A stretch of DNA of 57,985 bases from a virus (taxonomy: Duplodnaviria; Caudoviricetes), in the IMG/VR virus record IMGVR_UViG_3300010397_000011, positions 1 through 57,985 of that record, one strand, 5' to 3'. This document shows, in pieces, positions 36,495-52,888 of the stretch (position 1 is the stretch's first letter; every line of letters starts with the position of its first letter). Below the pieces are notes generated by a model. It was not told the origin of the DNA. It ran no database searches and saw only the letters and a program-made list of their open reading frames with translations. A program made the translations under genes and the position numbers.

Positions 36495-37451
36495 CTACAG
36501 CCCACGGACAAGGGCCACTGCCTTCGCCTTCAGGGGCTCAGGGCGCAGCAGGGTCCGACCGAGGTAGGTGTCGGAGTTCCGGTAGCCACGGGCGTGGTCG
36601 AGGTACTCGACGGCCGCGTCCACGAGGCCGAGCCCCGTGCCGCGGTGCCCGTCCGTCGTCAGGCTGTCCATGTAGATGTGGCGGAAGATCGAGCGGGCCT
36701 CCTCGATGTTGTCGCGGACCCGATCCGAGAACGTGCCCTCAGGCGGGGCGGGGATGAAGTCGCTGACGAAGTGGTTGAACTTCACCTCGTCGATCTTCAT
36801 CCCGAACAACTCGGTGGCCAACTCCTGCCACGCCTTGAACTCGTCGCGCACACCGGCCATCGCCGCCTTCGCCTCGTCGATCCGACCGAGGACGTCGCCG
36901 GTGTGGCGGAACACGAACTGGCGGCCCGTGCGGTCGCCCTCCATGCTGGCGGCCTGGTAGGTGTTCCAGCAGACGACGCGCACTGAGGTCGGGAGGACCT
37001 TGCACGCGCCCTCGCCGTTGTGGGAGTTGAGGAACGCGATGAACGGGTAGGTCTCGGTGTCGTCACCGCAGATGACTTCGGGCTCGTCGAGGTAGGCGAC
37101 GGCCCACACCTGCGCTCCACCCTTGCATGAGCCGGCGGTCTCGAACTTCGCGCCGAGGCCGAGGATGACCTCGATCACTTCGCCCATCACTCGGTTGGGC
37201 ACGAGGCCGAACGTGTCGGACACGGGGCCGAGGGGTGCTTGCGTGTCGTCACGCACGACGACCTGATGGTCGGTGAGGGCGACGAAGTCGTCGCCGATCT
37301 TGTGGTACAGGGGCCGGAGTTCCGGCTCCCACGTCAGGCCAGCCTTGACCCTGGCGTCTTCCCAGTCGGTCGGGTAGTCGTCGAGCACGAGCCCTTCGCC
37401 GTGCCACATCGGCTGACGAACGCTGAATCCGGTGTCGAAGTATGCGGGCAT
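36495..37451 (-). CDS. DUF932 (phage/plasmid TIGR03299-like) protein
   Basis: MWHGEG, AGLTW, FETAGS..GG..VW, NSHNG, TSVRVVCWNT and FRHT motifs. Confidence 0.88.
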   Translation of the reverse strand: MPAYFDTGFSVRQPMWHGEGLVLDDYPTDWEDARVKAGLTWEPELRPLYHKIGDDFVALTDHQVVVRDDTQAPLGPVSDTFGLVPNRVMGEVIEVILGLGAKFETAGSCKGGAQVWAVAYLDEPEVICGDDTETYPFIAFLNSHNGEGACKVLPTSVRVVCWNTYQAASMEGDRTGRQFVFRHTGDVLGRIDEAKAAMAGVRDEFKAWQELATELFGMKIDEVKFNHFVSDFIPAPPEGTFSDRVRDNIEEARSIFRHIYMDSLTTDGHRGTGLGLVDAAVEYLDHARGYRNSDTYLGRTLLRPEPLKAKAVALVRGL

Positions 37452-37470
37452 GGTCTCTCTCCTTTTCGGT

Positions 37471-37527
37471 GGAGCCTGATTGCTCCGTGCGTGGCACCGA
37501 CCGATCAGGCCGGTGCCACGAGGCGCA
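37471..37527 (-). ncRNA. Repeated intergenic two-hairpin RNA motif, copy B
   Basis: UGCGCCU-CGUGGCACCG..CGGUGCCACG-CAC-GGAGC-N6-GCUCC. Confidence 0.7.
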
Positions 37528-37531
37528 ACAA

Positions 37532-38116
37532 TCACGCGGTCTTCTTCGCTGCTCCCTTCTTCGGAATCGGGGTGACCTCGCGCTTGCTGGCCGGGGTCTT
37601 CTTCGCCGCGGCCTTCGCCGGGGTCTTCTTCGCCGTCTGCTTCGCGGCGGGCTTGCGGGTGACCTTCTTGACCGGCTCGGCCTCGGTGGTCTCGGCGCTG
37701 GTCGCCTCGTCGGTGGAGGGCTCCTCAACCTTCTGACCCTTCACCGTCGCGATCCCGTGGGCCGCGTTGATCGCGTCCAGGTTCGGGGTGTCGGGCAGGG
37801 GCTCGCCGTTCGCCTTCGCGGTCTTCAGTGCGCGGGCCTCGGCCATCGCGAGGTTGAGCACCTCGACCGGCGCGACCTTCCGTGCCTTCTTGCCACCGCT
37901 GCTCTTGCGGCCCTCGCCGCGGGGTGCGGGCTCGGGCAGATCGATCGGGGTCCACTTCTTCCCGTCGCGGACGAACATCTCCCGCATCGGCTTCTGGACC
38001 TTCTTGCCGGTTGCCTCACGGCACTCGTAGCAGTGGGGGGTCCGACTGGCCGGAGGCTGGTCGGCCTCGACCTCACGGGAGTGTCCGCACGTCATGGTGA
38101 ATCGGTAGGTGGGCAT
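37532..38116 (-). CDS. Zn-ribbon protein with histone-H1-like Lys/Ala tail
   Basis: CGH...CYEC; KKTPAKAAAKKTPA tail. Confidence 0.65.
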   Translation of the reverse strand: MPTYRFTMTCGHSREVEADQPPASRTPHCYECREATGKKVQKPMREMFVRDGKKWTPIDLPEPAPRGEGRKSSGGKKARKVAPVEVLNLAMAEARALKTAKANGEPLPDTPNLDAINAAHGIATVKGQKVEEPSTDEATSAETTEAEPVKKVTRKPAAKQTAKKTPAKAAAKKTPASKREVTPIPKKGAAKKTA

Positions 38117-38738: not shown

Positions 38739-39215
38739 CTATCGGTTGCGCCGCTGTGCTGCGCGGCGGGCTTTCGCGTCTGCTGCCACTCTGTCCTTGC
38801 GGTTCTGAATCATCGCGGCGGCCTCCTCGGCCACTGCCCTGAACGCGTCATCGACCGAGACCTCCTCGTCTCCGATGAACGCACGGATCGAGGTGATCTC
38901 CCCGCTGTCGATGTCCCGCTCAAGGGAGTCGAGGGCGTCAGCCTTCGCGGCCCGCTCGACGAGGGACCGAAGGATGCGGTGCTCCCTCGCCAGGTTCTGC
39001 CGCTCTGCCGCGAACGCCGCGGCCTCAGCCGCGTGCCGGGCAATGAATGCGGGGTCGGTGGTGATGTTGAACCCGCCCTCGACTTCGGTGAGGGTGCGCT
39101 CGGCAATGCTGATGACCTCTCGGAGCTCCCGCTTCAGGGAGTCCTCGCTCGCCGCTTGCTCGGTCGCCATTGCGTCGAGCCGTTCGGCAATCAGTCGGTC
39201 GGTGTTGGTCGTCAT
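38739..39215 (-). CDS. Helical hypothetical early protein
   Basis: 158 aa with RBS GAAAGGA. Confidence 0.65.
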   Translation of the reverse strand: MTTNTDRLIAERLDAMATEQAASEDSLKRELREVISIAERTLTEVEGGFNITTDPAFIARHAAEAAAFAAERQNLAREHRILRSLVERAAKADALDSLERDIDSGEITSIRAFIGDEEVSVDDAFRAVAEEAAAMIQNRKDRVAADAKARRAAQRRNR

Positions 39216-39228
39216 GGTCGTTGTCCTT

Positions 39229-39306
39229 TCAGAACAGGTTGCCCACCACGATGTGGTGGACGAGGTGGACGGTCAGGGCCAGGCGGTGCAGGGCGCACTG
39301 AAACAT
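39229..39306 (-). CDS. Possible 25-aa leader peptide
   Basis: GGAGAG RBS, MFQCALHRLALTVHLVHHIVVGNLF; stop overlaps the RBS of the next gene. Confidence 0.35.
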   Translation of the reverse strand: MFQCALHRLALTVHLVHHIVVGNLF

Positions 39307-39309
39307 TGG

Positions 39310-39763
39310 TGCTCTCCGATCGGGTGGTCGTGGTCGTGGTCGTGGTCTCTGTCGTGGAGTGGAAGCACTCCGTGCGAGGCACCGACTGGGCGCAGCACAC
39401 GGTCACTGGGAATCGGGGCTCTCTTGTTTCAGCCCATCTGCCGGTCGCCCGGTTTCTTCTCCGTCCCTACGTGTGCTGCACCCAGCCGATGCCCCGAGGC
39501 GCAGGGCTTCACTGGTGTTGCAGCGGGAGTGTCGTGACGTTCGGGGTCACACACACTCTCGACTTGCTCGACTCCGCCCCTCACGGGACTTCGGGTAACA
39601 CGTGCACCCCGTCGCTCGGCTGCACTTCCCCGGACCTCCTGCACTTCGGCTCAGCCCTTGCATCACGCTCGGCCTTCGCAGGTCCCAGTCCGCTCTCAGT
39701 AGGTGGACTTCCCTTTGGGGGCTCCATCCCTACCTACCTCTTTAGTTTTCAAGGTTCTTTACC
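39310..39763 (-). ncRNA. Large structured leader/ncRNA containing extended motif copy D (39356-39503)
   Basis: No credible ORF; many nested stems, GNRA loops (CCC-GUGA-GGG, CCGG-GCGA-CCGG) and G-U pairs on the minus strand. Confidence 0.68.
39741..39757 (-). promoter_or_regulatory. boxA-like antitermination element
   Basis: GAACCTTGAAAACTAAA resembles the Gram-positive rrn boxA (GTTCTTTGAAAACT); just downstream of the predicted start site. Confidence 0.55.
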
Positions 39764-39769
39764 CCCCTA

Positions 39770-39798
39770 AAGGTAGGGTCGGGGCTGGGGCGATGCCA
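39770..39798 (-). promoter_or_regulatory. Putative sigmaA-type early promoter
   Basis: TGGCAT-17 nt-TACCTT. Confidence 0.5.
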
Positions 39799-39995
39799 CC
39801 ACAGACGCACATCCCGAGGACTTTGTTTGGCAGCAGCTGCCGAAAGTTCGCGGCGCTCTGAGCAGGGGAAACGACCCAAAACGCCCAGCCCAGGGAGACC
39901 AACTTGACAGTTATCGGCGCCAGCGGAGAGCGGCTACAACTTGGCAGCCGCTGCCGAGAGCGACGAGCCCGGCAGATAGCGGGTGCTGTCTTTAA

Positions 39996-40478
39996 TCAGA
40001 CCGGAGTGAGGACCGCGGCGAGGAGCCCGCGCAGCGCGTCCATGTCGACGGCCCACGCCGCGCACGCGAGCGCGGACGTCGGCCAGTCGTCGTGCTTCCC
40101 GTAACCGATGATCGGCACGTCACGCTCGACCATCACGCTGGCCTCTTGCATCGTGCCGTCCGAGCCGGGGAGCACCACGCCGACCTCGGCCACTGACCCG
40201 ACGAGCGCGTTGCGAAACGGGATCGTCAGGCCCGTGCGGAGTGCGATCGACAGTCCGCTCGACGGCGGCTGATACGGAGACGCGGGGATCAGTCCGATCG
40301 CGAGCCCACCGACCGACGTCGCTCCTCGAGCAGCCGCGTCCATCACGCCGCCGAGCCCGCCGCACACGAGGGCCAGGTCGTCGCGCTCACCGACCACTCG
40401 GCCGACGTCGTACGCGTCGAGCTCTATCTCAGGGGGGCAGTTCTTCCCCTTGCCGATCACGCACACGACGCGCCTCAT
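39996..40478 (-). CDS. LOG/SLOG-family (TIGR00725-like) nucleotide phosphoribohydrolase
   Basis: CVIG, LVCGGLGGVMDAAARGA...GG..IGLIP, RNA and PGSDGTMQE motifs. Confidence 0.85.
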   Translation of the reverse strand: MRRVVCVIGKGKNCPPEIELDAYDVGRVVGERDDLALVCGGLGGVMDAAARGATSVGGLAIGLIPASPYQPPSSGLSIALRTGLTIPFRNALVGSVAEVGVVLPGSDGTMQEASVMVERDVPIIGYGKHDDWPTSALACAAWAVDMDALRGLLAAVLTPV

Positions 40479-40744
40479 GCGAGACACCCTGCGTGGCTGA
40501 GGAGCGCGTAGCAGAACGCGAACGTGAGTACCTCTTTGCGGATGCGAGGATCGTCGAGCGGGACTCCCTCCGCGCTCATGGCGGTGATCTTGTCAGAGCA
40601 CTTCGTCTGGATGATGGCGAGCACGGCCGCCTCGACGCCAGCGTCAGCAATCGCGGACCAGGCTTGCACCGGGCCGTGGATGTGCAGCGTGCATCCCTGC
40701 ACGCTCTGCCTCAGCCGATCGGCAAGGGCCTCGGCGTCAGGCAC
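40475..40744 (-). CDS. Small hypothetical protein in the modification operon
   Basis: Overlaps the folE stop and the LOG start. Confidence 0.55.
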   Translation of the reverse strand: MPDAEALADRLRQSVQGCTLHIHGPVQAWSAIADAGVEAAVLAIIQTKCSDKITAMSAEGVPLDDPRIRKEVLTFAFCYALLSHAGCLA

Positions 40745-41372
40745 CGAACACGTGAGGCTTCGAGGTGGCGAGGGACTGGAACTCCCGCCGCCACGGGTCA
40801 TCGCGCAGGATGCCCCGATACCCGGTGACGACGACGACCTCCTGGCTCGGCGCGTTGGACTTGCAGATCAGACACATGTGGATCGACGCGAGGGAGAGCG
40901 CGACGCCCTTCGGTTCGAGCACCGCTTCGAGCGCGTCGAGGGTGTCGACGAGCAGACGCTCGTTCAACTGCGGCTGGCGTGCGAGGTAGTTCAGTCCCTT
41001 CTTCACCTTCGAGTACCCCGTGATCTTCTGGTCGGGCACGTACGCGAAGTGGGCCACGCCGAGAGCGGGCATCAGGTGGTGCTCGCACATCGACACGTAG
41101 TGGCAGTCCGTCACGGTGATGAGGACGTCGTCCTTCGCTGGGTTCGGGAACGTCTTCCACGGGATCTCGATGTCGCACCACGCCGCGTTGATGATGTCGC
41201 CGTACATCTCCGCGATGCGCCGTGGAGTGTTCGCCATCACCTCGGCCTTGTCGGACTGGCCGAGCCCTTGAAGCAGCAGGGTCACGCCACGCTCAAGCGT
41301 GTCGAGGTCGACCGGCTTCGGCGGGAGCGGCGCGCCGACGGGGGCGTGGTCGTTGTTCGTGACGGTGGTCAT
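40737..41372 (-). CDS. folE: GTP cyclohydrolase I (divergent)
   Basis: TPRR, SMCEHHLMP and HMC Zn ligands; SK and ERL present. Confidence 0.92.
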   Translation of the reverse strand: MTTVTNNDHAPVGAPLPPKPVDLDTLERGVTLLLQGLGQSDKAEVMANTPRRIAEMYGDIINAAWCDIEIPWKTFPNPAKDDVLITVTDCHYVSMCEHHLMPALGVAHFAYVPDQKITGYSKVKKGLNYLARQPQLNERLLVDTLDALEAVLEPKGVALSLASIHMCLICKSNAPSQEVVVVTGYRGILRDDPWRREFQSLATSKPHVFGA

Positions 41373-42143
41373 TCAGGTTCCTTTCACCATTGCGTCGAGG
41401 GTGTCGGTCCAGAGTTGACGTCGAGCCATGACGGCCGCGACCGCGGCGCGCCGGGCTGACGTCCAGTCCTCCTCGGTTTCGCACACGGCCTCGACCAGCC
41501 CGCGGGCCAGCGGCCCGTGGCTCTCACCGTCGAGTTCGATGTGCCTGTCGAGGTAGTGGCGCAGGGTCGCGCCACCGTTGCTGAGCCCAGCGAGGAGGGG
41601 CTCGAACATGGCGGGGATCAGTTGCTCGCGTCCGAGCGTGAACGCCGCGGCGATGGCGGGCAGGTTGCCCGTGCCGATGATCCCGAACGTGGTCGTGAGG
41701 AACCGCTCGGCGCCCGGCGGTGCGCCGAACTTCCGTGCGATGCGGGGCACCTCGGGGAGATGCCACTGCTGGCCTGGCGCGTGGAGGTGGCGAAGGGTCG
41801 CGTCGATGGCGGTGAGGTTCGCACCGGCCTCGACCATCGCCAGCCGGTACATCGACACGTGGTCGATGAACCCCTCGCCGTAGGTGTCGCACTCCTCGCC
41901 GGTCTTGATCTCGTTCACGAAGCGGGCCGCGGCCGGCGACCGTGACGGGAGCCACGGGACGGACGTGCACGTCGTGCGCAGCTGCAACGCAGTGAGCAGA
42001 GACATGAAGTCCCACACGGCCCACACGTGGTGCTCCATGAACAGGCGCAGGCGGGGCAGGGAGTCGAGCGCGTAGTAGAGCGGGTGCCCGACCACCTCGG
42101 CGCGTGTCGGTGCGACCGCTTCGGCCAGGTCGTCGAACGTCAC
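41373..42143 (-). CDS. DUF3050 heme-oxygenase-like diiron protein
   Basis: HPLY, FMEHHVWAVWDFMSLL, NEIKTGEECD, AAAFTLGRE and YLDRHIELDGESHG motifs. Confidence 0.88.
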   Translation of the reverse strand: MTFDDLAEAVAPTRAEVVGHPLYYALDSLPRLRLFMEHHVWAVWDFMSLLTALQLRTTCTSVPWLPSRSPAAARFVNEIKTGEECDTYGEGFIDHVSMYRLAMVEAGANLTAIDATLRHLHAPGQQWHLPEVPRIARKFGAPPGAERFLTTTFGIIGTGNLPAIAAAFTLGREQLIPAMFEPLLAGLSNGGATLRHYLDRHIELDGESHGPLARGLVEAVCETEEDWTSARRAAVAAVMARRQLWTDTLDAMVKGT

Positions 42144-43030
42144 GCCGCTGCCCTCCGTTCGGCCAGGACCTGCACCGCGTTCTGTGGGAGGTCGAACCCG
42201 CCGCCGCTCACCGCGTACATCCGCAGGCCGGGTTCGTCGTCGGGCCTGTCGGCGCGCACGACGGGGCCGTGCCGTTCACGTGCCCACGCCTCGACCTCGC
42301 TGTAGGTCGCGAGGCCCAGCGCGTCACGCACGGGCAACGGTGGCCCGCCGCGTCGGCCGCCGTACAACTCGCGTGGCTCGAACCCGAGGCGGCGCAGGAG
42401 ACGGCCGTGCTTCGCCATGCTCACGTTGTCACCGATGCGGACCTGCTCGCTCCGTCCCGTCGTGGAGTCGAACAGCGGGTAGTAGCCCCAGCGTCGACCG
42501 GCCAGCCACGACGAGGAGTCCACGCTGTAGAGCGGGAGCCCGCCGAGCACCGCGTCACCCGTCGCGCCGAGCCCGTGCCACACGATCTCGCTGCCCTTCA
42601 CCCGCATCATCGAGTCGACCATCCACCGCATACACACCGACGGCGGGACACCCGTGCCAGCCATCCCACCGAGACAGCCGTACGGGTACTCGGCCGCGAT
42701 CTTGCGCAGCACCTTCGGGTCCTCGTCGCGCATGTGGTAGACGGGCAGCACCGCGCAGCCCAGCCGTTCGAGCGTGCGCTGGTTCGCCATCGTCCCTTTC
42801 GAGTTGCCGATGACGTCGAGGTTGCACGCCGCGCTGAACAGGTGCTCCCACTTGTGGAGCCAGGCCGCGTACTCGTCGCACGTGATGACCGCGCCCTTCG
42901 TCATCGCTGAGTAGGCGCCCGAGTCCGCCCACATGTCGGGAGGCTCCCCGTCGATCGAGCAGCGGCGCGCGAACTCGTCGAGGTCGTGGTCGCGGTAGTA
43001 CCAGTACGAGAGCAGCAGCCGAACCCTCAC
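42140..43030 (-). CDS. dpdA: DpdA-like DNA guanine transglycosylase (TGT fold)
   Basis: LLSYWY, DSGAYS, LDVIG, PVYH, LGG, HGLG and SVDSSSW motifs. Confidence 0.82.
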   Translation of the reverse strand: MRVRLLLSYWYYRDHDLDEFARRCSIDGEPPDMWADSGAYSAMTKGAVITCDEYAAWLHKWEHLFSAACNLDVIGNSKGTMANQRTLERLGCAVLPVYHMRDEDPKVLRKIAAEYPYGCLGGMAGTGVPPSVCMRWMVDSMMRVKGSEIVWHGLGATGDAVLGGLPLYSVDSSSWLAGRRWGYYPLFDSTTGRSEQVRIGDNVSMAKHGRLLRRLGFEPRELYGGRRGGPPLPVRDALGLATYSEVEAWARERHGPVVRADRPDDEPGLRMYAVSGGGFDLPQNAVQVLAERRAAA

Positions 43031-43656
43031 GACGTCAGCGCCTCAGCCTTTGCTACGTCGTCGGCGCCCTCGAGTGAGGACCACCACGCGTTCATCCGGT
43101 CGAGGAGGTGGGGCGGGAGACGCAGGCGGAACGCGGGCCACGCGTCGGCGGGGTCGTGCTTGCCGACCTTGTCCGCGAGGTCGTCGAGGATCGGCGGTGC
43201 GATCGACAGGCGCAGGTCGTCGAGGTCCATCGCCGTGAACCCGATCGCCTCGCCGTACTTCTCCACGAGGTCGTCGAGCGCGTCGGCCAACGTGCCCCGC
43301 TCCCACACTCCCTCACCGACACGGTTCAACGCGATGCCCGCGGCCTCGGCGTGCGCGTCGTCGACAGACGCCCAGCCGACAACGACGGGTGTGCACCACC
43401 GCCCGTCGATGATGCGCAGCGAGTCGTCGGCCAGGAACGGTGACGGGTCCGCGTCGTGGAGCTCTGCGTCGAGGAGATGGTCACGTCGGCCGTGGCCGCT
43501 GACGATCATGCCCGTGCGGTCGTCGAGCACGACGGGCTCGATCCACCCGAACGCGTCGACGGACTTCTCCATCGCTTCGGCGTCGTGGCCCTTCGCGTTG
43601 CGTGGCGCGGACACGAGGTCAGCGACGGGTAGGTAGACGATCCGCCGTTCGGCCAT
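43027..43656 (-). CDS. ParB-like N-terminal domain protein (DNA-modification associated)
   Basis: PRNAKGHD..M.KSV..FGWIEPVV...IVSGHGR; ALNR..E..WE. Confidence 0.82.
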   Translation of the reverse strand: MAERRIVYLPVADLVSAPRNAKGHDAEAMEKSVDAFGWIEPVVLDDRTGMIVSGHGRRDHLLDAELHDADPSPFLADDSLRIIDGRWCTPVVVGWASVDDAHAEAAGIALNRVGEGVWERGTLADALDDLVEKYGEAIGFTAMDLDDLRLSIAPPILDDLADKVGKHDPADAWPAFRLRLPPHLLDRMNAWWSSLEGADDVAKAEALTS

Positions 43657-43668
43657 TGGGCGGGAACC

Positions 43669-45306
43669 CTAGCCCCGACGCTTGCGCTGGGCGATGTGCC
43701 TGTCGAGCGCGTCGGACAACTCGCCGGCCGTCCAGTTCGGGTCGATGCGCAGGCGCCACTTCAACGCGGCCGCGATCTGCCGGTCGCTCGGTTCGCGGTG
43801 TCGCCACGGCGCGTCGAGGCTGACGAGCGCGCCGACGTTCTGCTTGCGGATGAAGTCCTCGGCCACGCCCTGCGCGGTTTCGAGTGCGACGTCCGCGATC
43901 AGGGTCTTCGGTCGTCCCTCGTGCGGGGCCACCTCCGCGATCCAGCCCCTGATGTCGTGGCGCACCACGACGCGGGGTCGGTTCTTCCCGCCGAGCGACC
44001 GTTCGTAGGAGACGACGTTGCCGGTGCGCCGATCGGTGATCCGCACCCACGCGATGCCCGTCCCTCGCAACTGCCTGAACATGTCGGCCTCGACCGCGGT
44101 GAGCCTGCCCAGCGCGACCAGTCTGTCGTCGCGTTCCTGAAGCACAACGCTCAGCGGTGTCGTCTCGGCCCGCTTGCGGTCCTCCTCCTCCTCGATCCCG
44201 AACAGCGACGGCACCGTGACGAGGGAGTGGGCGAGCGTGGCACCGACGACATCGAGGACCAGCAGGTCGTCCTTCTCGGGATGACGGCGCGTGCCACGGC
44301 CGACCATCTGCGCGTACAACGCGCGGCTCTTCGTCGGGCGGGCCACGACGATGCAGTCCGTGCGCGGGTCGTCGTACCCCTCGGTGAGCACCGCGCAGTT
44401 CGCGAGCACCTGCACCTCGCCGTTCGCGTACTGGCGAAGCAGAGCCCGCCGCTGGTCGAGCGGGGTCTCGCCCGACACCCACTCGGCTCGCACGCCGCAC
44501 CGCACGAAGTAGTTCGCGACCATCGCCGCGGTCGCGACGGTCGGGGTGAACACGAGGGTCTGCCTGTCCGACGCGTGCTGACGCCACGCGCGGTAGACGA
44601 ACTGGTCGACGTTGCCGTCCTCGAGTGCGGCGCCGACCTGGCCCTGGTCGTAGTCACCGTGCCGTGTGCGCACCGACCCGAGGTCGAGGCTGTCCATGTG
44701 GACGCGCAGCCCGCGCACGTCAGCGAGGTACCCGGCGCGGATGCCCCACAGCATGTCGGCCGTGAACGTGATCTCGTCGAACAGGTCGTCGAGGCCCTTG
44801 CCGTCGCCACGGTCGGGTGTCGCGGTCACGCCGAGGAGGAGCGGGCCGTTCACCTTCCCTGCGCCGAACGCGTCGAGCACACGGCGGTACGTCGCGGCCG
44901 CGGTGTGGTGGGCCTCGTCGACGACGACGAGGTTGAACAGCGGGGTCGCCGCCAGCCGTGCAAGCCGTGGCTGACGAGCGAGGGTCTGCACGGAGGCGAC
45001 GACCACCTGACTGTGAACGTAGTCGAGGTCTGCCTTGACGATCCCGACATCCACGCCGGGCCACACCTCGCGCACCTTCGCCGCGGCCTGCGCGACCAAC
45101 TCGTCGCGGTGGGCGAGGATCAGCGTGCGACCTCCTCGCCGCTCGGCCAGCGCCGCGAAGATGATGGTCTTGCCGAGCCCGGTCGCGGCGACGACCAACT
45201 GCTTGCGGCACCCGCGTTCCTCGGCAGCCGCGATGCGGTCGAGCGCGTCGACCTGGTAGTCGCGCAACTCGAAGCGCACGTGCGGTCCGAACGTCAGCGT
45301 GCTCAC
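43669..45306 (-). CDS. SF2 DEAD/DEAH helicase
   Basis: LRDYQ, ATGLGKT, DEAHH, TATP, LTEGYD and QMVGRG motifs. Confidence 0.93.
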   Translation of the reverse strand: MSTLTFGPHVRFELRDYQVDALDRIAAAEERGCRKQLVVAATGLGKTIIFAALAERRGGRTLILAHRDELVAQAAAKVREVWPGVDVGIVKADLDYVHSQVVVASVQTLARQPRLARLAATPLFNLVVVDEAHHTAAATYRRVLDAFGAGKVNGPLLLGVTATPDRGDGKGLDDLFDEITFTADMLWGIRAGYLADVRGLRVHMDSLDLGSVRTRHGDYDQGQVGAALEDGNVDQFVYRAWRQHASDRQTLVFTPTVATAAMVANYFVRCGVRAEWVSGETPLDQRRALLRQYANGEVQVLANCAVLTEGYDDPRTDCIVVARPTKSRALYAQMVGRGTRRHPEKDDLLVLDVVGATLAHSLVTVPSLFGIEEEEDRKRAETTPLSVVLQERDDRLVALGRLTAVEADMFRQLRGTGIAWVRITDRRTGNVVSYERSLGGKNRPRVVVRHDIRGWIAEVAPHEGRPKTLIADVALETAQGVAEDFIRKQNVGALVSLDAPWRHREPSDRQIAAALKWRLRIDPNWTAGELSDALDRHIAQRKRRG

Positions 45307-45662
45307 GGTTCCTCCCGTGCGTGTAGTTGTCGGGTCTCGAAGATGCCGTCGAGGTCGGGCTCGTGCAGCATGATGAGCCGCGCGTAGTACGACGTGTAGT
45401 TGTTGTTCAACTTGAAGTCGTCGCCTCCGGTGCGCAGCGCGACGTTCCACCGCAGCACCTCGAACAGCATCTTCATGCCGATGCGTCGCACGCCGCGCGC
45501 GTGGGCCTGGCGGGCGAGCGCGACCAGTTCCCGGTACACGTGCGGGTTGTCTTGGTGGAACGCGAGGAACGCCTGCTCGATCGTCAGTCCGTCAGGCGGG
45601 CCGACGTGCCCGGTCGGGTAGTCCACGACGGGGTACGAGGCGAAGTCCAGTTGCTCGTTCAC
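45303..45662 (-). CDS. Conserved phage hypothetical protein
   Basis: FHQDNPHVY...FEVLRW...FKLNNNYTSYYAR. Confidence 0.65.
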   Translation of the reverse strand: MNEQLDFASYPVVDYPTGHVGPPDGLTIEQAFLAFHQDNPHVYRELVALARQAHARGVRRIGMKMLFEVLRWNVALRTGGDDFKLNNNYTSYYARLIMLHEPDLDGIFETRQLHAREEP

Positions 45663-45883
45663 GTGCGCTCGACGTTCAACGTCCACTGCTGCCCGACGAG
45701 GGCCCCGGTCTCGGGGTCGTACACGTACAGGATCGTCATGCCGTGGATCGGGTTGTTGGCGAGGATGTTCACGTCGCCAGCCGGAAGGCGCTGGCCCTTG
45801 CGGTCGTGGACCGATTGCACGAAGTGCCCTTCGGTCTCGATCTCACGCATCGGGTGGAACTCGGTACGGCGCTCGACGGTCAT
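45659..45883 (-). CDS. Hypothetical protein
   Basis: Coupled 74-aa ORF. Confidence 0.55.
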   Translation of the reverse strand: MTVERRTEFHPMREIETEGHFVQSVHDRKGQRLPAGDVNILANNPIHGMTILYVYDPETGALVGQQWTLNVERT

Positions 45884-46107
45884 GCGGTGGACTCCTTCAG
45901 CGGGGTGTCACGGTCGGGGCGCAGCGCCAGTGAGACCGCGCCCTCCGACACACCGGCAGCCTGCGCGATCAGCCGGAGCGGGATGCCCTTCGCTCGGGCC
46001 TGCGCGTACAGCTTCCGTCGTACGTTGAACTCGGCGCGTTGCGTGCGCTCGATCTGCGCGAGCCGCAGGCGCGACTCTCGGATCTTGGTGAGCACGGGGT
46101 CTTTCAC
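45880..46107 (-). CDS. Small HTH DNA-binding protein
   Basis: ARAKGIPLRLIAQAAGVSEGAV. Confidence 0.68.
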   Translation of the reverse strand: MKDPVLTKIRESRLRLAQIERTQRAEFNVRRKLYAQARAKGIPLRLIAQAAGVSEGAVSLALRPDRDTPLKESTA

Positions 46108-51587: not shown

Positions 51588-51945
51588 CGGACGCCTCCGT
51601 CAAGAACGCACCGACGCGCAGTTCCGCGACGGGCACGTCACGGCCGGGAGGCACCAGCACGATCAGCCGCTCCGTGAGCGCGTTCAACGTGAGCATCCCG
51701 AGGAGCATCACCTGCTCGCCCGCTTGCATCACCGCCTCGTCGCCGGGCTGCGTGAGGCCCTCGTCAACGAGCGCCGCTTCGATCGCGCCGCCCAGGTCGG
51801 CCGCCGCGTTGCACACACTCAGACACGCGGACAACGCACCGATGACCCGGTCGGGATGCTCGCTCAGCACCTCGACGATGACGCCGGCGATGGCCTGCGC
51901 CGCTCGCTCGATGTTGTTCGTCGGCTCCATGAGGAAGTCGCTCAT
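51580..51945 (-). CDS. Hypothetical helical protein
   Basis: ATGA-coupled ORF. Confidence 0.5.
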   Translation of the reverse strand: MSDFLMEPTNNIERAAQAIAGVIVEVLSEHPDRVIGALSACLSVCNAAADLGGAIEAALVDEGLTQPGDEAVMQAGEQVMLLGMLTLNALTERLIVLVPPGRDVPVAELRVGAFLTEASDE

Positions 51946-52673
51946 CGGGTCACCACCGTCGCCTCGGTGTGCGGCGGGACAACCTCGACGCCAGGCACGA
52001 CGACGTGGCTCTTGCCGAGGTACGCGGTCCACTGCTCGTGCGCGATGACCTCCTGCTCCATCACCGCGCCCTCGACGCCACACATCCGGCAGAACCGGAC
52101 GTCGGGCTCCGTCGTGTCGAACGTGTCACCGCAGTCCATGTGGACCGTGTAGATCGCGGGGTCACGCTCGACGCGCACCGCGTCCTTCAGCGTGGAGACC
52201 AGCACGTCTTCCTTCTTGCGGATCAAGTCCTCACGCTTCATAAAGTGCAGGTGCTGGATCAGGGCCGGCTCGTCGGTGATCTTGATCGTCGGCTTGTGGC
52301 CGGTCGTCTTCACGTCACCGGACGGCAGGCGCAGGGTCTTCGCGTCGTCGTCGATGGCGCGCCTCGCCAACGCGTAGGTGCGGAGCTGCCCGTCGAAGTA
52401 GTTCGACGCGCGGGACAGGGGCTTCTCCTCGTGTTCGAGCCAGTCGACGATCTGCTGCATCCACGCGGCGGCCTGCGTGCGCACGCCCTCGCGCTTCAAC
52501 TCGATGCTGACCAGCATCCGCATCGCCCACTCGGCACCACGGTCATCGCTGATCTGCCACCGGCTCGGGAGGTCGGTGCCCACCTCGACGACCTCGTCAC
52601 GCATGATGTCGCCGAGGGATGGCGCGTCCATAGGCGCCGTGAAATGGGCAGGTAGGGGAAGGATCTCAGGCAT
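51942..52673 (-). CDS. Gam-like host-nuclease inhibitor (DNA end-binding)
   Basis: AEWAMR.L, coiled coil, KTLRLPSG.V and VVPGVEV motifs. Confidence 0.75.
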   Translation of the reverse strand: MPEILPLPAHFTAPMDAPSLGDIMRDEVVEVGTDLPSRWQISDDRGAEWAMRMLVSIELKREGVRTQAAAWMQQIVDWLEHEEKPLSRASNYFDGQLRTYALARRAIDDDAKTLRLPSGDVKTTGHKPTIKITDEPALIQHLHFMKREDLIRKKEDVLVSTLKDAVRVERDPAIYTVHMDCGDTFDTTEPDVRFCRMCGVEGAVMEQEVIAHEQWTAYLGKSHVVVPGVEVVPPHTEATVVTR

Positions 52674-52888
52674 GGTCTCTCCGTTCTTGCACCGCACCGC
52701 GCGGTGCTGCCGTAACCCTACCGCAGGGGTGTGACATACCCCGCTAAAGCAGACGCGAGGCGGCCCCGCTACCACGCACCCGAGAGACCATGCCTAGTCA
52801 ACCGAAGGTGCGTAGGAACGGGGCCACCCGTGAGGTGCCGCCCCGGCCAAGGGGAAGGCACGCCCACGGTACCGCACTGCGCGTGCTG

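Follow-up and report, generated by a model that had tools for sequence, protein, structure and literature searches.

Our analysis of a tailed-phage genome of 57,985 nt (IMG/VR record IMGVR_UViG_3300010397_000011; hereafter the window, meaning the whole stretch of DNA analysed) reveals a divergent GTP cyclohydrolase I (GCH-I), here termed FolE*, that is encoded in one translationally coupled operon with a DpdA-like transglycosylase, a DUF3050 iron enzyme, a small helical protein, and a LOG-like protein (SLOG). Judged from its sequence and its relatives, FolE* is a specialised GCH-I paralogue and not an ordinary FolE. On balance, we think it probable, though not strongly so, that FolE* opens the imidazole ring of GTP, starting a route other than the preQ0 route to a free guanine-derived base that DpdA would put in the phage DNA.

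FolE* matches the Pfam model GTP_cyclohydroI (PF01227) over residues 27–199 (E 1.2e-37, 129.5 bits versus a cut-off of 27), PHROG 2197, and 15 solved GCH-I sequences (best 4uqf, E 2.3e-26, then 1wm9, 3.3e-26). Alignment to the solved chains indicates that the CEHH motif, H165-x-C167, E138 of QxxER, S121-K122, and the TPxR arginine R52 are kept. The domain score and the catalytic and zinc residues place FolE* within the GCH-I family (PF01227, T-fold), and an earlier note on this DNA was right that the zinc and catalytic motifs are intact: C96, H99, C167, H98, and H165 are kept, and are conserved at 99–100% in the clade described below. The same alignment bears out the three motif changes that the note had reported, FolE* having GYSKVKK, QLNERL, and HMCLICKS where the Listeria, Thermus, Yersinia, and 11yz chains have GLSK..R, Q.QER., and H.C...RG. 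Roles of the equivalent residues are named for Thermus GCH-I (PMC4005822):

Zn ligands: Thermus C108, H111, and C179; FolE* C96, H99, and C167
Catalysis: Thermus H110 and H177; FolE* H98 and H165
Guanine N1/N2 binding: Thermus E150; FolE* E138
Ribose hydroxyls: Thermus S133; FolE* S121
Triphosphate: Thermus K134, R137, R183, and R64; FolE* K122, K125, K171, and R52

The note had further proposed that the changed motifs are substrate contacts, and this is correct in part. Two of the changed residues, K125 and K171, correspond to Thermus Arg137 and Arg183, which are named as triphosphate contacts (PMC4005822), but both changes are from Arg to Lys, and the base-binding Glu is itself kept, the Gln-to-Asn change adjoining that Glu and not falling on it. 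The four documented phosphate positions are all basic in FolE* (R52, K122, K125, and K171). The proposal that the R-to-K changes alone amount to loss of triphosphate binding was dropped, since charge is kept at the four contact positions. FolE* misses every NCBIfam FolE cut-off (TIGR00063, 116.4 versus 181.6; NF006824, 102.6 versus 202; NF006825, 119.8 versus 174; NF006826, 131.6 versus 162), and in place of the signature of FolE proper (Thermus R137, R183, and the Q-E pair of QxQER) it has K125, K171, and N137.

The changes in FolE* are shared by a large clade. A word-indexed protein search with FolE* returned 217 proteins at E ≤ 1e-10, and the best 120, which are 56–97% identical to FolE*, were aligned together with FolE* and the product of a bacterial locus, L023, giving 122 clade rows. 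For comparison, 94 rows of ordinary FolE, all retained, were taken from the open reading frames (ORFs) of lower-identity loci (L008–L022 and L024–L102) in viral contigs and genomes of bacteria. The contig scans (viral, genome, and metagenome) list best matches only, so that counts of loci are lower bounds; they gave at least 11 further clade loci at 57–97% identity and at least 169 loci at ≤38%, with none between among the matches listed, and the metagenome scan added only five short clade contigs among the matches listed. The core zinc, catalytic, Glu, and Ser-Lys residues are conserved at 99–100% in both sets, whereas the following positions of FolE* distinguish them:

Position 55: clade E/D/Q, 122/122; ordinary R/K, 75/94
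Position 120: clade Y, 122/122; ordinary L/I/V, 94/94
Position 124: clade K, 122/122; ordinary A, 79/94
Position 125: clade K, 122/122; ordinary R, 94/94
Position 133: clade Q/G, 122/122; ordinary R/K, 94/94
Position 137: clade N, 122/122; ordinary Q, 94/94
Position 171: clade K, 110/122, and R, 12/122; ordinary R, 94/94
Position 172: clade S/A/T, 121/122; ordinary G, 94/94
Position 174: clade A/G/S, 121/122; ordinary K/R, 85/94
Position 175: clade P, 119/122; ordinary K, 81/94
Position 178: clade E, 121/122; ordinary S, 73/94

In particular, the loop spanning positions 174–178 reads K/R-K-P-G-S in ordinary FolE and A-P-A/S-Q-E in the clade. The loop after the second zinc cysteine of FolE* includes the equivalent of human R216, a residue that holds the beta and gamma phosphates and belongs to a region ordered by contact with them (PMC7750480); the clade's version of this loop has two basic residues fewer and one acidic residue more. 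Other consistent changes from ordinary FolE to the clade are M to A at 101, F to A at 103, E to Q at 39, and G-L to V-M at 45–46. None of the 94 ordinary FolE sequences carries any of Y120, K125, N137, and K171, so the substitutions are not, as the earlier note had allowed they might be, common in ordinary FolE. Because they are fixed across the 122 clade sequences and absent from the 94 ordinary sequences, we conclude that they are not drift. A maximum-likelihood tree of 79 rows, comprising FolE*, L023, and a sample that took each fourth protein of the 120 and each second ordinary sequence of the 94 (32/122 clade rows and 47/94 ordinary rows), sets the clade apart by a single branch with a Shimodaira–Hasegawa-like approximate likelihood ratio test (SH-aLRT) value of 100, and the comparison with canonical FolE that the note had called for thus yields a separate clade. 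The FolE of actinophage Bipper, which stands with QueD and QueE, is free of the substitutions and keeps the ordinary motifs GLSKLAR, QVQERI, and HDCMRLRG.

The operon that contains FolE* is organised as follows:

43027..43656, − strand: ParB-like protein, 5′ of DpdA with a 4-nt overlap
42140..43030, − strand: DpdA-like DNA/tRNA-guanine transglycosylase homologue, 296 aa; 4-nt overlap with the DUF3050 start
41373..42143, − strand: DUF3050, haem-oxygenase-like iron enzyme; stop abuts the FolE* ATG
40737..41372, − strand: FolE*, divergent GCH-I paralogue, 211 aa, ATG start
40475..40741, − strand: small helical CxxH protein, 88 aa; GTG start codon overlapping the end of FolE*, stop codon overlapping the probable ATG of SLOG (ATGA)
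39996..40487, − strand: SLOG/LOG-like protein; homologues place the likely true start at ATG 40478

The same genes accompany the clade elsewhere. Neighbours were scored by tblastn (E ≤ 1e-4) at 11 loci of the clade and 169 of ordinary folE. The most constant clade neighbour is SLOG (10/11 clade loci versus 0/169 ordinary loci); DUF3050 is present in 7/11 versus 0/169, the small protein in 4/11 versus 0/169, with position and motif adding loci L007 and L023, and DpdA in 5/11, plus a weak match in L107, versus 9/169. With contigs of 1.5–3 kb at five clade loci, a neighbour missing there says little. Gene order in the module is shuffled between lineages, which argues that the linkage is not simply inherited synteny, and in the window and each of the five other viral contigs no more than a few kb separate the module from DpdA. 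FolE* thus combines a separate branch with clustering beside base-releasing and base-processing enzymes, the two features that mark the PtnA/AzaE type of GCH-I paralogue discussed below.

The only clade member among the genome-contig matches listed is L023, in a Microthrixaceae metagenome-assembled genome (6652-11559). This bacterial locus has genes for FolE*, the small protein, SLOG, and DUF3050, and no DpdA within 8 kb. It is flanked by genes for a 423-aa glycosyltransferase that weakly matches cytosylglucuronate (CGA) synthase (E 1.4e-7, 31 bits versus a cut-off of 300) and a 423-aa GME-fold protein (dimethylargininase-like, weak) that matches phrog_25854, neither of which has a counterpart in the window or the other clade loci. 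L023 may be a nucleoside natural-product cluster. Its FolE* belongs to the clade minority with Arg at position 171 (12/122), its small protein has CATHxAG instead of CTxHxHG, and its SLOG has DGSHGT where the other copies have PGSxGT; these variants may mark a bacterial subgroup.

SLOG matches Pfam LDcluster4 (PF18306, 3.6e-25), is TIGR00725-like, and matches several LOG structures (E down to 3e-6). It contains GGxGGVM and PGSxGTxxE, close to the LOG motifs (GGxGxM and PGGxGTxxE), and its R92 and E115, 23 residues apart, are kept in 11/11 module copies; SLOG accordingly has both the motifs of a LOG/SLOG nucleotide N-glycosidase and the catalytic Arg and Glu (the pair as given in PMC7109123). 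DpdA matches phrog_887 (E 4.1e-35), and Bipper DpdA matches the window at 3e-32. Its closest relatives are actinophage DpdA proteins, at 30–37% identity, and the best folds found with its predicted model are archaeosine and bacterial tRNA-guanine transglycosylases (TGTs). The motifs DSGAxS and YSxDxS, which presumably hold the two catalytic aspartates of TGT, are invariant in seven aligned homologues. The window thus contains the DpdA of the phage 7-deazaguanine system, whereas the QueD, QueE, and QueC of the preQ0 system were not detected in the phage genome. Specifically, searches of the complete genome for QueC (PF06508), PTPS/QueD (PF01242), and Radical_SAM (PF04055) gave nothing at E ≤ 1, and Bipper QueD and QueE gave only noise against the window (best E 2.0 and 0.076, respectively), the absence of QueE resting on PF04055 and Bipper QueE.

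DUF3050 matches its Pfam model with 231.7 bits, and its nearest solved structure is 9VWB (HamA, E 4.6e-36). HamA is a haem-oxygenase-like iron enzyme of the pathway to fragin, a diazeniumdiolate with an N-N bond (PMC12522199). The phage protein keeps the residues aligned with HamA His40, Glu84, His96, and His199; its invariant residues are H39, E83, E84, H95, E173, H201, D205, and H209, and the His/Glu/Asp metal-ligand set among them (H39, E83, H95, E173, H201, D205, and H209) is invariant in six module homologues. The Pfam match and the conserved ligands together assign it to the haem-oxygenase-like iron oxidases.

The small protein is predicted to be a helical bundle with high confidence (predicted local distance difference test score, pLDDT, 91.8). 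Its invariant residues L10, C17, H20, G23, and A27 define a C-x2-H-x2-G motif. It belongs to no Pfam, PHROG, or NCBIfam family, has no Foldseek match in PDB at E ≤ 0.001, and gave only helical-repeat noise below 0.9 in the ESM Atlas. A profile search of 1.84 billion representatives recovered 62 relatives, 58 with the motif, and several of these are fusions. In another phage lineage, L005 (6600-7682) and L006, the small protein and DUF3050 form a single ORF; all eight family members of 342–369 aa (P0121, P0127, P0129, P0137, P0138, P0146, P0147, and P0162) are DUF3050 fusions, and two members of ~230 aa (P0136 and P0139) are NUDIX fusions. A complex prediction for DUF3050 and the small protein scored 0.00 and was counted neither way. 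The module thereby provides a genomic setting for two little-understood families: DUF3050, here outside nonribosomal peptide synthetase (NRPS) clusters, and the orphan helical CxxH domain, which occurs fused to DUF3050 or NUDIX.

A NUDIX gene lies directly 3′ of the small protein–DUF3050 fusion in L005 (7652-8101) and L006; in the window genome, NUDIX has no match. The earlier note had considered GMP or GDP as the substrate of FolE*. With NUDIX following the module in L005 and L006 and fused to the small protein in two clusters, an intermediate at the triphosphate level fits, and a GMP or GDP substrate is disfavoured.

The module resembles the 8-azaguanine cluster (ptn, or 8-azg) of Streptomyces. 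In that cluster, PtnA is proposed to remove C8 from GTP without later rearrangement (PMC7109123, PMC7674941), PtnB is a small iron-binding orphan protein (PMC7109123, PMC7674941), PtnC is an 8-azaGMP nucleosidase of LOG-like type that carries Arg95 and Glu118 (PMC7109123), PtnD has an N-terminal pyrophosphatase domain, and a nitric-oxide synthase supplies the new nitrogen (PMC7109123, PMC7674941). Both systems have a GCH-I paralogue on a branch of its own with zinc and GTP residues kept; the phage order FolE*, small protein, LOG-like protein is that of ptnA, ptnB, and ptnC; the 23-residue Arg/Glu spacing of SLOG is that of PtnC R95/E118; and a pyrophosphatase is involved, as the PtnD domain there and as NUDIX in some phage-module lineages. 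The end product of ptn, 8-azaguanine, is moreover a free analogue of guanine and open to exchange by TGT enzymes; eukaryotic TGT exchanges it reversibly (PMC8136771). The phage differs in having the DUF3050 iron enzyme and no nitric-oxide synthase, and DpdA and no efflux pump. PtnA has Arg165 where FolE* has Lys171, PtnA and PtnB being compared here from the text of the papers only.

AzaE, of the azacitidine cluster, is likewise a GCH-I paralogue with a conserved catalytic framework and a diverted ring-opened intermediate. Its main product is free 2,5,6-triamino-4-hydroxypyrimidine, the ring of which is then reshaped by an oxygenase (PMC13749301). AzaE itself strips the phosphoribosyl group, whereas the phage module has a separate LOG-like enzyme; the oxygenase there is a metal-independent cupin and here a haem-oxygenase-like iron enzyme; and the base is re-attached there by a phosphoribosyltransferase, the role that DpdA would have here. 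HamA and MgoB, the DUF3050 proteins of the fragin and mangotoxin-regulating clusters, offer a further comparison: the phage protein matches HamA with the aligned ligands kept, but HamA acts on valine on an NRPS carrier domain, whereas the phage has no NRPS and the partners of its DUF3050 are nucleotide enzymes.

To our knowledge, the only bases that DpdA-type transglycosylases insert are 7-deazaguanines, the products of FolE, QueD, QueE, and QueC. The window shares with that system a phage DpdA next to a gene of the GCH-I family, in the region of the replication genes, and differs from it in that QueD, QueE, and QueC were not detected in the genome and FolE* falls outside the ordinary clade. 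Many phages, actinophages above all, carry DpdA without the FolE/QueD/QueE/QueC pathway (Hutinet 2019). Term searches of the available text of Hutinet 2023 found no "oxygenase" and one word beginning "log", and DUF3050 and LOG enzymes seem not to be described there. A literature search for DUF3050 gave, by title and abstract, nothing on phage DNA modification, and one combining SLOG, GTP cyclohydrolase, and transglycosylase gave no paper. What is new here is a variant that combines DpdA-based DNA modification with a diverted GCH-I paralogue, each kind being already known.

From the signature, the clade, the module, the fusions, and the lack of detected QueC, QueD, and QueE, we infer a pathway whose chemical steps, base, and DNA insertion would be as follows. 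FolE* would bind GTP and open the imidazole ring with release of formate. The remodelled pocket and phosphate loop would then disfavour the Amadori rearrangement and ring closure, which are slow, rate-limiting steps of GCH-I (PMC7750480), so that the reaction would be diverted from dihydroneopterin triphosphate (H2NTP), and FolE* would hand on a 2,5-diamino-6-ribosylamino-pyrimidinone nucleotide or a derivative of it. DUF3050 and the small CxxH protein would oxidise, modify, or re-close this intermediate; a pyrophosphatase (NUDIX in some lineages, presumably a host enzyme here) would convert it to a monophosphate; and SLOG would cut the N-glycosidic bond to free the base, the order of these three steps not being fixed. 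DpdA would finally swap the freed base for guanine in the phage DNA. The earlier note had suggested that FolE* releases the ring-opened intermediate to feed a LOG enzyme. The precedents of PtnA/PtnC and AzaE and the LOG-like neighbour make this a plausible product, one of those that the sequence allows.

Several observations weigh against this pathway. FolE* retains H98 and S121, the counterparts of Thermus residues linked to opening of the ribose, and lacks no residue with a known part in the late steps, which is compatible with normal H2NTP formation. PtnA and AzaE also keep the catalytic residues listed in their papers (PMC7109123, PMC13749301), AzaE makes some H2NTP (PMC13749301), and both have Arg where FolE* has K171 (PMC7109123, PMC13749301); the likeness of FolE* to them is drawn from the descriptions in those papers and not from their sequences. 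The homologues of the small protein do not carry the name PtnB (of 10 looked up, none has a name beyond "hypothetical", which 3 carry, one of these 3 being from Acidimicrobiales), and NUDIX beside GCH-I also fits classical pterin chemistry. The DpdA model has modest confidence (pLDDT 61.7). The Pfam TGT model misses the window DpdA, so that absences based on Pfam are soft for phage proteins. Finally, L023 has no DpdA within 8 kb, which indicates that the module can work without DNA insertion.

Three other explanations were weighed. FolE* could be an ordinary GCH-I that makes H2NTP and boosts the precursor for host preQ0 or folate, with its substitutions being neutral drift and DpdA inserting host preQ0. 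This would agree with the retention of all catalytic residues, a Pfam score far above the cut-off, the conservative nature of the R-to-K and Q-to-N changes, and the 76 DpdA phages without precursor genes, possibly host-reliant, listed by Hutinet 2019. We nevertheless regard it as quite unlikely: the substitutions are invariant in 122 sequences that are only 56–97% identical and are absent from the 94 ordinary sequences, all NCBIfam FolE cut-offs are missed, and SLOG and DUF3050 (10/11 and 7/11 clade loci) adjoin none of the 169 ordinary loci. The nearest DpdA proteins are from actinophages, mycobacteria are without Q-pathway genes (PMC6884629), and the DpdA-only phage Orion has no 7-deazaguanine (PMC6884629), which would count against host supply if the window phage had a host of this kind. 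H2NTP could instead be the starting point of a new pterin-derived base for DpdA, or of a cofactor, made by NUDIX, DUF3050, the small protein, and SLOG. NUDIX beside GCH-I follows folate-pathway logic and recurs in the module, SLOG matches a LOG-fold carrier protein of molybdenum cofactor, a pterin (2iz5, E 6.6e-6), and pterins bind eukaryotic TGT as inhibitors (PMC8136771). The LOG-hydrolase Arg and Glu of SLOG are, however, kept in 11/11 copies, whereas dihydroneopterin monophosphate has no N-glycosidic bond to cut; the remodelling of the FolE pocket and its fixation would be unexplained; and no PTPS/QueD-type enzyme was found in the genome (FolB was not searched). A pterin product therefore seems unlikely to us.

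The third explanation is suggested by L023, where the four genes occur without DpdA beside genes for CGA-synthase-like and GME-fold proteins: FolE*, the small protein, SLOG, and DUF3050 would make a diffusible nucleobase or nucleoside, an antimetabolite or a signal, and DpdA would be separate. The precedents of 8-azaguanine and azacitidine, both secreted antimetabolites, point the same way. The proximity of the module to DpdA in the window and all five other viral contigs, the single overlapping operon in the window, and the fact that a transglycosylase consumes exactly a free base argue against a separate DpdA, and we rate this explanation as low as that of an ordinary FolE.

Within the pathway from ring-opened GTP to a base written by DpdA, a more specific version, which we consider possible but doubtful, is that the five genes constitute a new DNA hypermodification pathway with a product other than 7-deazaguanine: FolE* would take C8 out of GTP, DUF3050 and the CxxH protein would rebuild the five-membered ring with a heteroatom or an N-oxygenated group, SLOG would free the base, and DpdA would write it into DNA at the expense of guanine. 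Of the possible products, the triazole 8-azaguanine is the most concrete one, and its synthesis would involve no nitric-oxide synthase. A genuinely novel DNA base is a real, if unproven, prospect. Should the product be one, transglycosylase-based DNA modification reaches beyond deazapurines, with a bearing on phage-host conflict (evasion of restriction and CRISPR), sequencing, and biotechnology. The clade would likewise supply a third natural case of a GCH-I paralogue halting ahead of the Amadori step, enlarging a small set of outcome-altered paralogues (PtnA 2020, AzaE 2026), and its signature (Y120, K124/K125, N137, K171, and the 174–178 loop) offers a handle on what commits GCH-I to the Amadori rearrangement. 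The module as a whole is a testable candidate for a second DpdA precursor pathway.

Among 50,697 phage records, a nucleotide search with the module and a search with the SLOG protein gave no match, and DUF3050 was found only in Ralstonia phages RP12 and RP31. In RP31 (record 79830-86742), DUF3050 is the last gene of an operon that also holds three radical-SAM genes and two uncharacterised ones, and a 16.6-kb stretch has no match for FolE*, SLOG, the small protein, or DpdA. The RP12/RP31 operon looks like a different, undescribed pathway.

The window is a whole virus record with direct terminal repeats, and hence a complete genome, with a G+C content of 68% and nearly all genes on the − strand. 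It is identified as a tailed phage by its PHROG matches for the large terminase, portal, major head, and tape-measure proteins. No tRNA gene or Rfam family was found in the window, and no promoter-like site in 39000-46000. Downstream of SLOG, ~780 bp (39216-39995) are without an ORF of gene-like codon bias, and neither an Rfam family nor a convincing promoter or terminator was found in this stretch. The early-gene region also holds a DUF932 protein (36495-37535, − strand) and a Mu Gam-like end-protection protein (51942-52775, − strand), which look like ordinary phage accessories. The ParB-like protein (43027-43656) has a further match, to the N-terminal portion of a PHROG whose annotation is DNA methyltransferase. 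It adjoins DpdA in 4/11 other clade loci, accompanying it in L003–L006; its membership in the module is uncertain, and it may help in targeting the modification.

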